From a virus: a stretch of 64,000 nt of DNA. The translations under genes were made by a program, and so were the position numbers. The DNA lies in IMG/VR virus record IMGVR_UViG_3300043446_002688, one strand, 5' to 3'. The notes below the pieces were generated by a model. It had not been told where the DNA came from. It was given only the letters and a program-made list of their open reading frames with translations, and did no database searches. Positions 11,554 through 43,805 of the stretch are shown here, in pieces. Positions within the stretch are counted from its first letter, which is position 1, and the number at the start of each line of letters is the position of its first letter.

Positions 11554-12213
11554 TCAAGCTGTCGCTGCAGCAATACGAATAACCTTGGCCATTTTCTTAC
11601 CGTGGGCCTGATAACCGATAACCGCCACGGTTTTGTCATAGCAAGCACGGCAGTCCAAGCATTTTCCATCCTGCTCTGGGGCGGCGCACAATGTAACACC
11701 TGCTGGCACTGGTGCACCTGCTGGCACAATGGTACTACCATGGCCTGCACCAAAGGTACCATCCACAGCGTCACTGCTATAGCGGACCATTACATTAGGC
11801 AGTGCTTGCATGGCATTGAGCACGTTATGGAATTTAGGGAATTTATACATGCGGGTGGGTAACCAGTGCTTTACATGGGGAGTAGCTGCCATGATGGCGA
11901 GCATTTTCTCTGCCAATGCGAGGCTATACACGTCGCCAGAATCAAACCAACGGAAGTGGGTTTGCTTTTGTAAAGCTTTGACCATCACCTGGATCCAGTC
12001 AGCTTCTTGCCATGCCTTTTTATTGTCAGCACGGACCTTTTTTGTATCGGGGAAATTGTAGCAACCAGTGGTAGCGTAGCAACCAGAGCAAGCAGCGACC
12101 AGCTCACCATTTTCACCAACCGAACCGGGACAGGTTTCAATAGCTTGGAGGGACCATGAAAGGGTACCAAGCTTGCTGGTTTTGGAAATTTTGTTTATTG
12201 TCGCTGCTGTCAT
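11554..12213 (-). CDS. Gp88-family Cys-rich protein (radical-SAM-like)
   Basis: TCPGS...ACSGCYA, FRWFDSGD, HWLPTR, NVMVRYS, GKCLDCRAC. Confidence 0.75.
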   Translation of the reverse strand: MTAATINKISKTSKLGTLSWSLQAIETCPGSVGENGELVAACSGCYATTGCYNFPDTKKVRADNKKAWQEADWIQVMVKALQKQTHFRWFDSGDVYSLALAEKMLAIMAATPHVKHWLPTRMYKFPKFHNVLNAMQALPNVMVRYSSDAVDGTFGAGHGSTIVPAGAPVPAGVTLCAAPEQDGKCLDCRACYDKTVAVIGYQAHGKKMAKVIRIAAATA

Positions 12214-12244
12214 TGCTATTCCTTTTTGATTTACTATGGAATGA

Positions 12245-12289
12245 ATTATACCAGAATTCCTGAAAATGGCAACCTAATACTTTTTTATT
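12245..12289 (-). promoter_or_regulatory. Early promoter TTGCCA-N16-TATAAT with upstream AATA-dyad box
   Basis: Minus strand AATAAAAAAGTATT-AGG-TTGCCA-N16-TATAAT. Confidence 0.8.
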
Positions 12290-12305
12290 CCATCCGACCG
12301 GTGGG

Positions 12306-12401
12306 TTACATTGCTCTCCACACGGTTACATCCAACACCAACACCACCACAGCGGCAACCATCACCACCGAGAAAACCACGGATTCTAATTTTGCGAGCA
12401 T
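12306..12401 (-). CDS. Small hydrophobic peptide, 31 aa (MLAKLESVVFSVVMVAAVVVLVLDVTVWRAM)
   Basis: AAAGGAAG RBS; single TM helix. Confidence 0.55.
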   Translation of the reverse strand: MLAKLESVVFSVVMVAAVVVLVLDVTVWRAM

Positions 12402-12417
12402 TTTACTTCCTTTCGGA

Positions 12418-12639
12418 TCAATAGGACTGGTGGGAATGGCCGATAGCATATGCAACGGCATCGGCGGCAGCACAATCCTCGCCAGAAGCGTCCACTGGAC
12501 GAGGGGTGAAAATTGCAGCAAAGTCATCATAGCAATAATAACCAGAATGGGTTACCACCAAGCGAGCATCAGCAGGCAGGCGGGACAATGCGGCAATCAT
12601 ATCAGCCACGGAAATAGAGTCATCGGATGGTGAAAACAT
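12418..12639 (-). CDS. Hypothetical early protein
   Basis: Own promoter and AAAAGGACAGCAAAATG leader. Confidence 0.7.
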   Translation of the reverse strand: MFSPSDDSISVADMIAALSRLPADARLVVTHSGYYCYDDFAAIFTPRPVDASGEDCAAADAVAYAIGHSHQSY

Positions 12640-12672
12640 TTTGCTGTCCTTTTGTTTGTTTGTATGGAATGA

Positions 12673-12700
12673 ATTATACCAGAACCAGAAGGAATGGCAA
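12673..12700 (-). promoter_or_regulatory. Early promoter TTGCCA-N16-TATAAT
   Basis: Near-duplicate of the 12245 promoter, including downstream TCATTCCATA. Confidence 0.8.
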
Positions 12701-12724
12701 CCTATTGTCCATCCATCCGGTGGG

Positions 12725-13063
12725 TTATTTTACAGCGCTTGCCTTTTTTGCCATAATAGCAGAGGCTATGGCGTTATCTTCGGCGCCGTACACCACAGCT
12801 TTGCTTGGCTTACGGTTTGCTTTCAGAGCTTTCACACCTACAGGCGCTGCTTGCTTTGCGAGCAGTTTATCCAATCGGGCTTGTGCCTTAGCGATAGCAG
12901 CAGCCTGCTTACTGGCCTTGGCTTCTGCTTTCGCAGCCTTGGCGTTTTCACGTTCTTGCTTTACACCAGCAGCAAGGCGTTGAACCTCGAGCTTTGCATT
13001 GGCAAGATTAATACGGGCTTGCTTGAGAGCAGTAACCAACATGGAGGGAGCTTTTGCTGACAT
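12725..13063 (-). CDS. Ala/Lys-rich basic protein (histone H1-like composition)
   Basis: MSAKAPSMLV...AKAAKAEAKASKQAAAIAKAQ; AAAGGA RBS. Confidence 0.75.
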   Translation of the reverse strand: MSAKAPSMLVTALKQARINLANAKLEVQRLAAGVKQERENAKAAKAEAKASKQAAAIAKAQARLDKLLAKQAAPVGVKALKANRKPSKAVVYGAEDNAIASAIMAKKASAVK

Positions 13064-13094
13064 TTTTTGTCCTTTCAAATTCAACATGGGATGG

Positions 13095-13123
13095 ATTCTA
13101 ACCTAAAATTGCCGTTTTGGCAA
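13095..13123 (-). promoter_or_regulatory. Early promoter TTGCCA-N17-TAGAAT
   Basis: Read on the minus strand upstream of 13063. Confidence 0.7.
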
Positions 13124-13139
13124 CTGTAAACTTTTTTCT

Positions 13140-13418
13140 TCAAGCAGTCCGGTCGTGTATTTTGTGCACCTTACTAGCATTTTCAGCCAGCAGCCTATCA
13201 TCCATGAGCTTGCTCAGGATATATTTTGCAATATTAATATGCTGGCGTGCTTGGTTCTGGGTTTGCGCTGTGTTGCAGCTCATCAGCTCTTGAGCATCCG
13301 ACAGCACGCTCATAGCGACCATTTCCAGACCGGACAAGCGAGCGGTCAAGCTCTGGCAATATTCCTGCTCGATTGTCGCTTGGCTGATACCGTAGCACTG
13401 CTTTTCAAATTCCGTCAT
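13140..13418 (-). CDS. Hypothetical early protein (MTEFEKQCYG...)
   Basis: Same AAAAGGACAGCAAAATG leader as the 12639 gene. Confidence 0.7.
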   Translation of the reverse strand: MTEFEKQCYGISQATIEQEYCQSLTARLSGLEMVAMSVLSDAQELMSCNTAQTQNQARQHINIAKYILSKLMDDRLLAENASKVHKIHDRTA

Positions 13419-13448
13419 TTTGCTGTCCTTTTCAAATTTCATGGATGA

Positions 13449-13477
13449 ATTATAGGCGATTTTGCAGGTTTTGGCAA
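13449..13477 (-). promoter_or_regulatory. Early promoter TTGCCA-N17-TATAAT
   Basis: Minus strand; shares the upstream AAGAAAAAAGTTTACA with the 13095 promoter. Confidence 0.8.
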
Positions 13478-13526
13478 GTGTAAACTTTTTTCTTCCAGCG
13501 GACAATATGAGAACCATTGCGCTATA

Positions 13527-13554
13527 TTGCCAAGGGTTCTGGTTTGTGTATAAT
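13527..13554 (+). promoter_or_regulatory. Promoter TTGCCA-N16-TATAAT firing into a non-coding region
   Basis: Exact hexamers; no RBS-supported ORF downstream. Confidence 0.7.
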
Positions 13555-13811
13555 CCAACCCATAGCAATCGGTAGCCGGAGCTCTAATCCGACCCTGCCT
13601 GATGGTTATCGGTCGCCGCCGGATTAATACTTTTGTTTGCAGGATCACACTGGGGCTGCATACTTTTGTTTCTCGGCTGGACCATCGAGCGTCATTTTGT
13701 TTTCAACCTGCGTGGTTTTTGTATACTTTGGCATTAATCCGGCATCTGACCCAGAGACTAAGTTGGACTAATACCAAAGCATTAGCGATAGTTTGCGACT
13801 ATTGGTGCGAC

Positions 13812-13890
13812 TTATCCACAGCATACCCACAAGGGTCAAAAGTTATTCACATTTTATCTACAAAGTAAAGTTATCCACAGCATATCCACA
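13812..13890 (+). repeat. Cluster of six co-oriented DnaA-box-like 9-mers (putative origin or DnaA-binding locus)
   Basis: TTATCCACA 13812 and 13871, TTATTCACA 13843, TTATCTACA 13854, ATATCCACA 13882, ATACCCACA 13823. Confidence 0.8.
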
Positions 13891-13914
13891 GCGAATAGTT
13901 GACCAAAATGCTTG

Positions 13915-13960
13915 AATACTATGGTACTAGGTTGCCAAAATGCGTTTTTCCCAGTATAAT
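13915..13960 (+). promoter_or_regulatory. Early promoter TTGCCA-N17-TATAAT with AATAC-N4-GTACT box
   Basis: Box 13915-13928, -35 13932-13937, -10 13955-13960. Confidence 0.8.
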
Positions 13961-14045
13961 TCCACGCATGATGAGCACAAAAGCACGAAGTGCAAAAACA
14001 ATGAATATTGGAAATGAATACTTTTTTATTCCATTACAATGATGG

Positions 14046-14090
14046 ATTACTTTTGTATTATATTGCCATTTTTCGGTTTTTGTGTATAAT
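14046..14090 (+). promoter_or_regulatory. Early promoter TTGCCA-N16-TATAAT with ATTAC-N4-GTATT box
   Basis: Box 14046-14059, -35 14063, -10 14085. Confidence 0.8.
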
Positions 14091-14113
14091 GTAATTTTTT
14101 AACGCAGCAGATT

Positions 14114-14281
14114 ATGACACAGCAGAAAATGTATACTTTGGTATTCACTGAGGCAGAATTAGAATTAATTTATGACCAGCTGAATATTGTAGAACTTTAT
14201 GATGATTCTGATGAAAACTTAGAACTTTGTATTTCAATTAATGAAAAAGTATTCAAGGCGAAAGAAAATGAAACAATTTGA
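14114..14281 (+). CDS. Small acidic hypothetical protein, 55 aa
   Basis: Read by hand: MTQQKMYTLVFTEAELELIYDQL... Confidence 0.55.
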   Translation: MTQQKMYTLVFTEAELELIYDQLNIVELYDDSDENLELCISINEKVFKAKENETI

Positions 14282-42176: not shown

Positions 42177-43078
42177 TTGATATGACGAATGAGAAATTGA
42201 TAATTATTGTACCTGATGACCATTATCACAAAAAACATAACTACACATTTCTTGTATATGATTTTGAAAATGGAAATTTAATACACAAAAGTCCATACAA
42301 TCCTGATTTAGATTGTAAAGAATTGGAAGGTCAAGGTAGACCAACTTTTAGACCTTATGGCATAACATATGATGATGATTACATATACATTGCCTCACAT
42401 AAAAAAATTGCAAAGTATGATAGAAAAACTTTTGAGTATTGTGGATTAGTTGGCATATCAATGTATATTAACACACATAGAATGTTAAAGAGTGGTGATG
42501 ACTTTTATGTGACACATACATCAGTCAATACAATTGGTGTCCATGGCAAAACAAACAAATATTTTAATGTCGTTTCTTTTGAATGGGTTGAAGCACCTGA
42601 ACATCCAGATGCAGCTGAGAGCCATGACATTACACACCTAAATTCTATAACAGAACATGAAGGAAAAATTTATTTTTGCCTAAACAATTTAAGTGTGAGG
42701 CCTTCAGAATTTGGTTATTTGAATAAAGCCACAGGTGAACACACAATGATTGGATCAGCTGGTGCTGGTTGCCATGATTTGCAAATTATAGACAATAAAC
42801 TATATTCATTATCAACTTCTACGGGTCATATTATTGAAATTGATTTGGCCACACGACAAACATCACAATATAAAGTTGTTAAAAAACTAAAAACATTCTT
42901 GCGTGGTATGGATGCATTAGACGGTAAAATAATTTTTATCGGTTCCAACCACTATTCACATGGTATTGTTGAAATGAATAATTGTTTCGTTGCCAGTTTT
43001 GATATATCAACAAAACAAACTAAACGACTATTCAATATCACTCATGCGGACACAGTTGCCTGTATGAAACTGGTATAA
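42173..43078 (+). CDS. Beta-propeller protein
   Basis: Repeated blades: RPYGIT, NTHRM, HLNSIT, GCHDL, FLRGMD. Confidence 0.7.
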   Translation: MIDMTNEKLIIIVPDDHYHKKHNYTFLVYDFENGNLIHKSPYNPDLDCKELEGQGRPTFRPYGITYDDDYIYIASHKKIAKYDRKTFEYCGLVGISMYINTHRMLKSGDDFYVTHTSVNTIGVHGKTNKYFNVVSFEWVEAPEHPDAAESHDITHLNSITEHEGKIYFCLNNLSVRPSEFGYLNKATGEHTMIGSAGAGCHDLQIIDNKLYSLSTSTGHIIEIDLATRQTSQYKVVKKLKTFLRGMDALDGKIIFIGSNHYSHGIVEMNNCFVASFDISTKQTKRLFNITHADTVACMKLV

Positions 43079-43091
43079 GTAAAATTTGGTG

Positions 43092-43120
43092 TTGCCAAAT
43101 TACAAAGAATGATATATAAT
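43092..43120 (+). promoter_or_regulatory. ssrA promoter TTGCCA-N17-TATAAT
   Basis: Exact hexamers about 7 nt before the acceptor piece. Confidence 0.85.
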
Positions 43121-43126
43121 CCTTAT

Positions 43127-43425
43127 ATGGTTGTATGAAGCAACTTGAAAAGTATTCTGGACGGGGGTTCGACTCCCCCCATCTCCACCAAAAACATTCT
43201 TCCACTCTAACGGGATAGGAGTTGGCCACCTTAAACGGTCGAAGTTTGTTTTTGATGGGGATGCCATGGTTTCGACAGGGTAAAGAGTATAGAAGTGGAC
43301 AACTTATCAGAGAAGATATAAAAACTAAATCAAAGTAAATGCAAATGACGAAAGTTACCGCATTGCTGCCTAATTGAGGCACTAGGGTTTTTGACAGTTT
43401 ATCCTCGTAACAGAATTAAACTGTC
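43127..43425 (+). ncRNA. ssrA: Circularly permuted two-piece tmRNA: acceptor piece ~43127-43190, intervening segment 43191-43256, coding piece 43257-43425; tag (A)ANDESYRIAA at 43341-43373
   Basis: T-arm GGGGG-TTCGACT-CCCCC plus CATCTCC-A-CCA lies upstream of the 5' strand GGGGATG (7-bp acceptor stem with G3:U70); CAGGGTA pairs TATTCTG; ACAACT pairs GGTTGT; tag ends AA-stop. Confidence 0.93.
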
Positions 43426-43805
43426 TTTTTGGTGTGTTGATTGTTTGATGGTTTACCAAGTCTAGCAATTGACATTTTTTGTAAAGTTTCTTGTGAGTAA
43501 ATGTTTTTCTTGCCTTTGTTCCAAGGTTCAGTTCCAACTGGCCTGCCATTTTTGAGATTGTAGTATTTTTTACCAAACTCAGATTCTTTAATCATGCGAA
43601 GAAATCTAGCCTCTTCTTTTCTGGCTGTCTTCCTATCATTAAAGGTTTTGATTATTTTACGTTTGAAGTCGTTAGGTCTGTATTGGTGTTCTCCATTGAA
43701 CCAACGTGATGAAGATATATAACCATCGGTTATGTTTCCTTCATGCATACCAACATAGAACATTTTTCGGCATTTGTCGTACCAGATGTATAAAAAGTAT
43801 TGCAT
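43416..43805 (-). mobile_element. Free-standing GIY-YIG (Seg-like) homing endonuclease with NUMOD3 tail
   Basis: FLYIW...FYVGMH, GYISSS, YYNLK, PWNKGKK..YSQETLQKMS; GGAGG RBS before ATG at 43805. Confidence 0.85.

Follow-up and report, generated by a model that had tools for sequence, protein, structure and literature searches.

In textbooks, T4-type phages exemplify replication that is independent of the host initiator, and a conserved, phased array of DnaA-type boxes among the early promoters of such a phage is unexpected. In fact, T4 replication is described without a requirement for DnaA, which goes unmentioned in the review consulted here (PMC3016281). What protein, then, does such an array serve, and what does it do for the phage? 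The locus in question occupies positions 13812-13890 of the window, by which we mean the whole 64,000-nucleotide stretch analysed, corresponding to the reverse complement of bases 26263-90262 in a complete viral record of 176,978 bp and 38.5% GC (IMGVR_UViG_3300043446_002688). A first-pass annotation, made from the sequence alone, had offered two answers, these being a host-DnaA-assisted phage origin and a DnaA sponge that shuts off host initiation.

The box array and its likely ligand

As read directly from the sequence, the array consists of six 9-mers on the + strand, arranged as three pairs with an 11-bp pitch and 2-bp spacers:

13812-13820, + strand: DnaA box 1, TTATCCACA, a perfect match
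13823-13831, + strand: DnaA box 2, ATACCCACA, two mismatches to TTATCCACA, 11-bp pitch from box 1
13843-13851, + strand: DnaA box 3, TTATTCACA, fits TTWTNCACA
13854-13862, + strand: DnaA box 4, TTATCTACA, one mismatch, 11-bp pitch from box 3
13871-13879, + strand: DnaA box 5, TTATCCACA, a perfect match
13882-13890, + strand: DnaA box 6, ATATCCACA, one mismatch, 11-bp pitch from box 5

The three co-oriented pairs described in the first-pass annotation are therefore present as stated, as are its three exact matches to TTWTNCACA (boxes 1, 3, and 5) and its 20-bp direct repeat, with 13812-13831 and 13871-13890 being 95% identical. This head-to-tail 11-bp geometry is the one used by DnaA for oligomerising at origins. 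When TTWTNCACA was counted over the window, a comparison that the annotation had proposed genome-wide, 14 occurrences were seen against 16.8 expected; allowing up to one mismatch, the whole genome contains 74 boxes, compared with 77.5 ± 9 in simulated genomes. Because these single-box counts are at the level of chance, there is no general enrichment of boxes in the 177-kb genome. Rather, it is the box cluster, and not the number of boxes, that is the signal, and this lies far beyond chance: five same-strand boxes in 80 bp were found in none of 300 first-order Markov genomes (the maximum of three was reached in two of them), and a Bonferroni-corrected Poisson estimate gives the cluster a probability of ~5e-6. 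Moreover, the array is the sole cluster in the whole record, and a complete relative (G002) likewise has exactly one.

The genome surrounding this array includes the genes for rIIA, NrdA, the gp6 baseplate wedge, gp59, and gp32, which together identify the phage as a T4-type myovirus; among these, gp59 and gp32 had already been attributed to it in the first-pass annotation, and both were found. By its gp6, the nearest cultured relatives are Pelagibacter phage HTVC008M and Methylophilales phage Melnitz (~40% amino-acid identity), both of which are placed in Kyanoviridae. A tmRNA gene is located at 43072-43440 of the window (+ strand; Rfam beta_tmRNA, 115.6 bits) and has ANDESYRIAA as its tag peptide. 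This phage-borne beta-type tmRNA hints at a betaproteobacterial host, such as a methylotroph, with the related Melnitz infecting Methylophilales; from this tmRNA and the kinship with Melnitz, freshwater Methylophilaceae would be plausible hosts. No match to MotCF or AsiA was found anywhere in the genome at E ≤ 1, and with MotA and AsiA absent, the phage has no middle promoter. On these same grounds, AAAATGCTTGA-N12-TAGGTT (13906-13934) was ruled out as a MotA box with a middle promoter.

As a candidate binder encoded by the phage itself, we looked for DnaA domain IV (PF08299, Bac_DnaA_C), to which there is no match in the phage. Since it lacks a DnaA-like DNA-binding domain, host DnaA is the likely ligand, as the first-pass annotation had supposed. 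At the level of sequence, this assignment is well supported by the match to the consensus, the pattern of variation and the kept helical phase among relatives (see below), and the lack of a domain IV homologue in the phage, and the array is probably a selected docking site for host DnaA. The identical 20-mer pair was also located in 35 contigs of bacteria belonging to many phyla. Among these, Methylovulum and Ligilactobacillus have it in the gap from dnaA to dnaN, an Acinetobacter contig has it next to a Rep3 plasmid initiator gene, and in Idiomarina and Pseudidiomarina (L191:3142 and L195:7562) it directly precedes polA. Its position in these last two genera would fit a control of DNA polymerase I expression by DnaA. 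Found as it is at both origins and promoters, the pair is an ordinary tandem DnaA site of either, and given its place as a promoter element upstream of polA, the module by itself does not point to an origin.

Conservation among related phages

For the first-pass annotation, a cluster that is not conserved in relatives was among the outcomes that would together have spoken against its proposals. Here, the exact 20-mer TTATCCACAGCATAYCCACA was identified in 19 IMG/VR contigs, 12 of which are syntenic relatives, and further relatives were found in a search with the neighbouring 130-aa protein. At the syntenic spot, which has the gp88-like block on one side and the rightward early genes on the other, two to seven boxes are kept in 19 distinct related contigs, with the cluster missing in more distant ones. 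Between subgroups, the intergenic DNA is unalignable except for the boxes and promoters. The boxes themselves are gained, lost, and inverted among the relatives, nearly always as pairs with an 11-12 bp pitch; inverted pairs (->-> <-<-) are seen in L026 and L029, and L031 has an array of two boxes. As tallied for 85 boxes from 18 contigs, picked at no more than two mismatches, 22 of the 60 mismatches hit the degenerate position 5, which is N in the consensus, while A7 and A9 are never affected, though with the boxes selected by mismatch number and sharing ancestry, this distribution is to be taken as supportive only. All five boxes in the L017-type subgroup are whole helical turns from the first, and two independent insertions between pairs, one of +11 bp (L006) and the other of +10 bp (L037), keep the helical register. 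Such phase-preserving indels suggest that a protein complex is assembled on one face of the DNA.

These patterns also bear on whether the array might be a relic from horizontally acquired DNA, or else the site of another (phage) protein. While the GC-richer neighbouring island and the gp88-like gene common to unrelated array-bearing phages would suit such a history, the boxes turn over and yet are always kept in the 19 contigs, the indels preserve phase, the variation follows the consensus, and a DnaA domain IV homologue is lacking in the phage; this explanation appears highly improbable to us.

The array is absent in the more distant L033 and L035, in two whole genomes (G003 and G004), and in the cultured Melnitz, which has no cluster. 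It is thus clade-specific and dispensable for such phages. A search for substitute iterons in the array-less L033 and L035 gave nothing convincing. Three copies of TCAGGTAG-NAT, two of them at an 11-bp pitch, were noticed in the box-less early region of L033 (5754-5837), and in L014 and the L017-type contigs the boxes come after similar units, TCAGGTAA. Among 50,697 phage records, there was no DNA match to provide a cultured model phage with the array, and the cultured cyanomyophage S-RSM4 has a single TTWTCCACA and no array.

Throughout the clade, the left neighbour of the array is constant:

11554-12213, − strand: gp88-like gene (PF17338 / DUF7227, phrog_1392)

In all T4-like relatives, 0.9-2 kb separate this gene from the array. 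An unrelated, podophage-like lineage also has it (50-57% identity), there at 0.5-1.2 kb from arrays that comprise 2-11 boxes (L098, L067, L116, L065, and L155). The gp88-like protein has conserved Cys clusters and the motifs FRWFDSGD and WLPTR. Considered as a replication or DnaA partner, it gave nothing in a PDB sequence search or in NCBIfam, and its AF2 model (pLDDT 68) has no clear fold, with the Foldseek matches being weak and TIM-barrel-like (E > 0.06). In cultured phages with a gp88-like gene, the array is absent nearby.

Transcriptional setting and possible roles

The features that surround the array are as follows:

13449-13477, − strand: leftward early-type promoter, TTGCCA-17-TATAAT, the last of four leftward single-gene cassettes, marking the divergence point
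13527-13554, + strand: P0, rightward early-type promoter, TTGCCA-16-TATAAT, whose transcript enters the array; same layout in L027
13561-13811, + strand: non-coding leader from P0 to the array, relatively GC-rich
13744-13811, + strand: conserved leader block, ATCTGACCCAGAGACTAAG..GGACTAATACCAAAG, then TGCGAC twice (13794-13799 and 13806-13811)
13915-13928, + strand: dyad AATAC-N4-GTACT, 3 nt upstream of the P2 -35, recurring at early promoters of the phage
13932-13960, + strand: P2, rightward promoter of the early type, 41 bp past box 6, kept in relatives
14000-14100: least stable duplex near the array (96th-99th genome percentile), including P3
14063-14090, + strand: P3, rightward promoter from the promoter scan, within the AT-rich zone
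14114-14281, + strand: small early ORF of 55 aa, the first one downstream, without a family match

According to the first-pass annotation, the array sits exactly where transcription diverges. This proved incorrect, as the back-to-back promoters at 13477-13449 (−) and 13527-13554 (+) place the divergence point nearby, at a distance of ~300 bp, and leave the array 260-340 bp inside the rightward unit. The order of P0, array, and P2/P3 was seen by scan in both the window and L027. Within the leader, the first part of the conserved block corresponds in L026 to a DnaA box with one mismatch (TAATCCACA). An 88-aa ORF running through four of the boxes (13602-13868) was rejected as a gene, having no family match and broken frames in the closest relative, and so was a structured primer or sRNA in the leader, for which the RNAalifold consensus reached merely -7.6 kcal/mol with many pairs broken. 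Lacking either a conserved ORF or a convincing conserved RNA fold in its leader, P0 is without an evident product.

On the other side of the divergence point, the leftward block (11554-13480, − strand) is made up of four single-gene cassettes, each with its own TTGCCA-N16/17-TATAAT promoter, and contains duplicated leader segments. Its genes are the gp88-like one and three small ORFs starting at 12639, 13063, and 13418, the small proteins of which have no family match. With a GC content of 0.44-0.46, this block is richer than the rest of the window, and it resembles the promoter-early stem-loop shuffling cassettes in the hyperplastic regions of T4-type phages. Dyads of the form AATAC-N4-GTAYT are located ~3 nt upstream of several early-promoter -35s and are clustered around the array (13915-13928, 14017-14030, 12276-12289, and others); they may represent a candidate regulator site.

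The AT-rich DNA that the first-pass annotation had placed downstream of the array was found in part. Thus, the DNA beside the last box is of average stability (33rd-49th percentile for 13875-13975), and the low-stability zone starts at ~14000, but easily melted DNA is indeed present at 14000-14100, some 110-210 bp away and on the side toward which the boxes point. Cumulative GC skew, put forward in the annotation as a further check, gave no origin signal: the extremes are elsewhere (~ -75 kb and +48 kb in window coordinates), and the skew tracks transcription, with a local dip at 10-14 kb that mirrors the leftward genes.

For the role of the array, we tentatively regard a DnaA-assisted, early, and transcription-coupled phage origin as the most likely. 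Here, an ATP-DnaA oligomer would form on the pairs with 11-bp pitch, as on closely spaced sites in chromosomal origins, and the complex so formed would open or mark the origin. P0 would transcribe into the array, while P2 and P3 would lead away from it on the side to which the boxes point and where the DNA is easily melted, and the opened DNA or an R-loop could then be taken up by the gp59/gp41 machinery of the phage. In such a scheme, DnaA boxes would replace iterons.

Precedents for this are found among the origins of T4: regularly spaced direct repeats are present at oriE, which requires an early promoter, and several of the origins are near transcriptional divergence (PMC3016281). With oriE, oriF, and oriG (PMC3016281), the array has in common a T4-type phage, even non-coding direct repeats beside early-mode promoters, a location near divergence, and the presence of gp59 and gp32. 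As with oriE in particular, even direct repeats adjoin an early-mode promoter and are syntenic in relatives, though the likeness is one of layout only, because the repeats of the array, as candidate host DnaA boxes, differ from the 12-nt iterons of T4. Unlike oriF and oriG, which are R-loop origins built from a promoter and a DNA unwinding element, the phage locus is without MotA/AsiA and a MotA-dependent middle promoter, and no unwinding element is evident directly after the promoter. Set against the oriF and oriG order of a promoter followed by an unwinding element, the locus gives a mixed picture, with P3 lying within the AT-rich zone and the P0 leader being GC-rich.

Chromosomal origins offer a second comparison. 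In both E. coli oriC (R1/R5M-I2) and the basal unwinding system (BUS) of B. subtilis incC (PMC8287927), there are the same head-to-tail boxes 2-3 bp apart, with the first of a pair nearer to the consensus. Moreover, the boxes likewise point toward less stable DNA, one promoter leads in and others lead out, and the dnaA-dnaN gaps of two bacteria contain the identical 20-mer. Indeed, the topology of E. coli oriC (mioC - boxes - unwinding element - gidA) is matched by that of P0 - array - melted zone/P2/P3. According to the BUS rule, at least three consecutive DnaA-trios are found within 16 bp of a conserved box (PMC8287927). The three phage pairs, with their 2-bp spacers, fall within the BUS limit of 3 bp between tandem boxes, but no run of three or more trios comes after any pair on either strand, there being at most two consecutive NAN or NTN triplets, and the AT-rich region that should directly follow the trios is not there. 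Also unlike the chromosomal origins, the array lacks a GC-cluster and AT-rich element after a pair as well as a dnaA/dnaN neighbour, and its setting is a lytic phage equipped with a helicase loader of its own. Plasmid and prophage origins (P1 oriR, F, RK2, pSC101, and Rep3 plasmids) provide a further case in which a mobile replicon has recruited DnaA boxes in tandem, with the same 20-mer being located beside a Rep3 gene. However, boxes in these origins are accompanied by an own Rep and iterons and work with host DnaB, whereas no Rep gene adjoins the phage array.

Taken together, what speaks for the DnaA-assisted origin of the first-pass annotation is a suggestive layout, namely the single array, the head-to-tail pairs, the promoters leading in and out, and the oriE precedent; it is weakened by the lack of trios, of an adjacent unwinding element, and of a skew signal, and by the distant relatives without an array. 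If this origin is real, it would give a group with poorly defined origins a directly testable, sequence-defined one, with a link to host physiology. It is conceivable, though we would call it doubtful, that a T4-like lineage with its own replisome and helicase loader evolved an origin fired or licensed by host DnaA, in which case the replication of a lytic phage would be coupled to the replication-initiation state of its host.

Alternatively, DnaA at the array might control early transcription, either as a roadblock to (or attenuator of) the P0 transcript or by raising or lowering P2. DnaA regulates the dnaA, nrdAB, and lambda pR promoters and can block an elongating RNA polymerase. Such control is a possibility on the unlikely side, and it fits with the placement of the array inside a unit, ~250 nt after P0 and 41-55 bp before the P2 -35 in all close relatives, with the P0 transcript being without an evident product, and with the polA genes of Idiomarina and Pseudidiomarina being preceded directly by the same pair. 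It is less easily reconciled with boxes at a single early promoter out of dozens in the genome, with a first downstream gene that differs between array-bearing subgroups, and with a distance from the last box to the -35 that varies from 41 to 55 bp, and six phased head-to-tail boxes exceed the needs of known DnaA operators. Were transcription the target, early-gene expression may be tied to the level of host DnaA-ATP, and hence to the state of growth or replication, with DnaA-ATP acting as a host-state sensor for a virulent phage.

The other proposal in the first-pass annotation, a sponge or inactivator of DnaA that shuts off host initiation by titration or a change in nucleotide state, would resemble E. 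coli datA or DARS, and like these the array is a box cluster outside an origin. Judged by their sequences, the perfect boxes are of a high-affinity type, and hundreds of late genome copies could amount to sites on the order of 1000. Nonetheless, with one array per genome, only about six sites would be present early, when a host shut-off would matter. No IHF core site (WATCAANNNNTTR) is found within 13500-14200, either among the boxes or around them, whereas datA function needs IHF, and the co-oriented boxes in their phage context are unlike the DARS arrangement. Furthermore, conserved helical phase and promoter position are unneeded for simple titration. Given the missing IHF site, the single array, and its one early copy, the sponge gained no specific support, and we consider it improbable. 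In the same 700-bp interval (13500-14200), GATC occurs only once, at 13643 in the leader, and this, like the missing IHF site, also speaks against an origin.

Another alternative is suggested by T5-like phages, whose untranslated injection-stop (iss) region has eight paired DnaA boxes, for which a tether has been proposed (bioRxiv 10.1101/866236, section 3.3.3, citing a 1987 description). By analogy, the boxes in our phage might anchor its DNA to membrane-bound DnaA, so that it is positioned, protected, or taken in by stages. Both phages are lytic and have conserved pairs whose boxes are separated by 2-3 bp and constrained in helical phase, in an untranslated region that adjoins very early genes, in the T5-like phages the pre-early ones (bioRxiv 10.1101/866236). 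The array also borders the GC-richer inverted block of single-gene promoter cassettes, the inverted pairs of L026 and L029 recall those of T5, and arrays in the podophage-like lineage are at the contig end, upstream of early genes. On the other hand, T5 boxes are in inverted repeats of a fixed terminal repeat, while the six boxes here are co-oriented (as is mostly so in the relatives), among promoters, and with no fixed record end nearby. In T4-type phages, packaging is by the headful and the genome is circularly permuted (PMC3016281), and consequently no fixed end enters first. The array is found at arbitrary distances from the record ends. Besides, the T5 model is itself a proposal only. We therefore view such a tether as very improbable, although both it and transcriptional control, neither of which was on the list of the first-pass annotation, are serious rivals to the DnaA-assisted origin. 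Readings other than the five considered here share a small remaining probability.

Occurrence beyond the T4-type clade

DnaA boxes in virulent phages are not new, as the iss region of T5 attests; what is new about the present case is its form, a conserved and phased array in a T4-type early region. Perfect TTATCCACA-NN-TTATCCACA pairs were detected in at least 119 viral contigs (IMG/VR, L061-L178); among the matches listed, 98 of the 118 pairs are outside ORFs of at least 90 aa, and 86 of the 118 have three or more boxes within 200 bp. Genes near these perfect pairs include those for terminase, ParB-like proteins, primases, and Holliday-junction resolvase. Unannotated and non-coding clusters were seen in two further phages, with at least eight DnaA boxes in the lytic, 128-kb Lactococcus phage PMBT69 (PQ036876.1; L180:2410-2640) and five in Gokushovirinae MT135265.1 (L181:770-850). 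Our literature search found no paper on arrays in PMBT69-type phages, gokushoviruses, or T4-like phages, and almost nothing on tandem DnaA-box pairs in viruses beyond T5 and plasmid-type prophages. If a DnaA-dependent origin is what the array represents, then those in other lytic phages (Lactococcus 949-group, gokushoviruses, podophage-like contigs, and T5) would point to a widespread and overlooked dependence on DnaA.

One lineage among the contigs with perfect pairs has its array after a CCCTCCCCC motif at the contig end. In Caudoviricetes sp. MW202796.1 (L218:3040-3120), the same C-rich motif is followed by about three copies of an iteron, TATGTCTTATATAA, which occupy the slot of the DnaA boxes in its relatives. 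This hints at an interchangeability of DnaA boxes and iterons at this slot.
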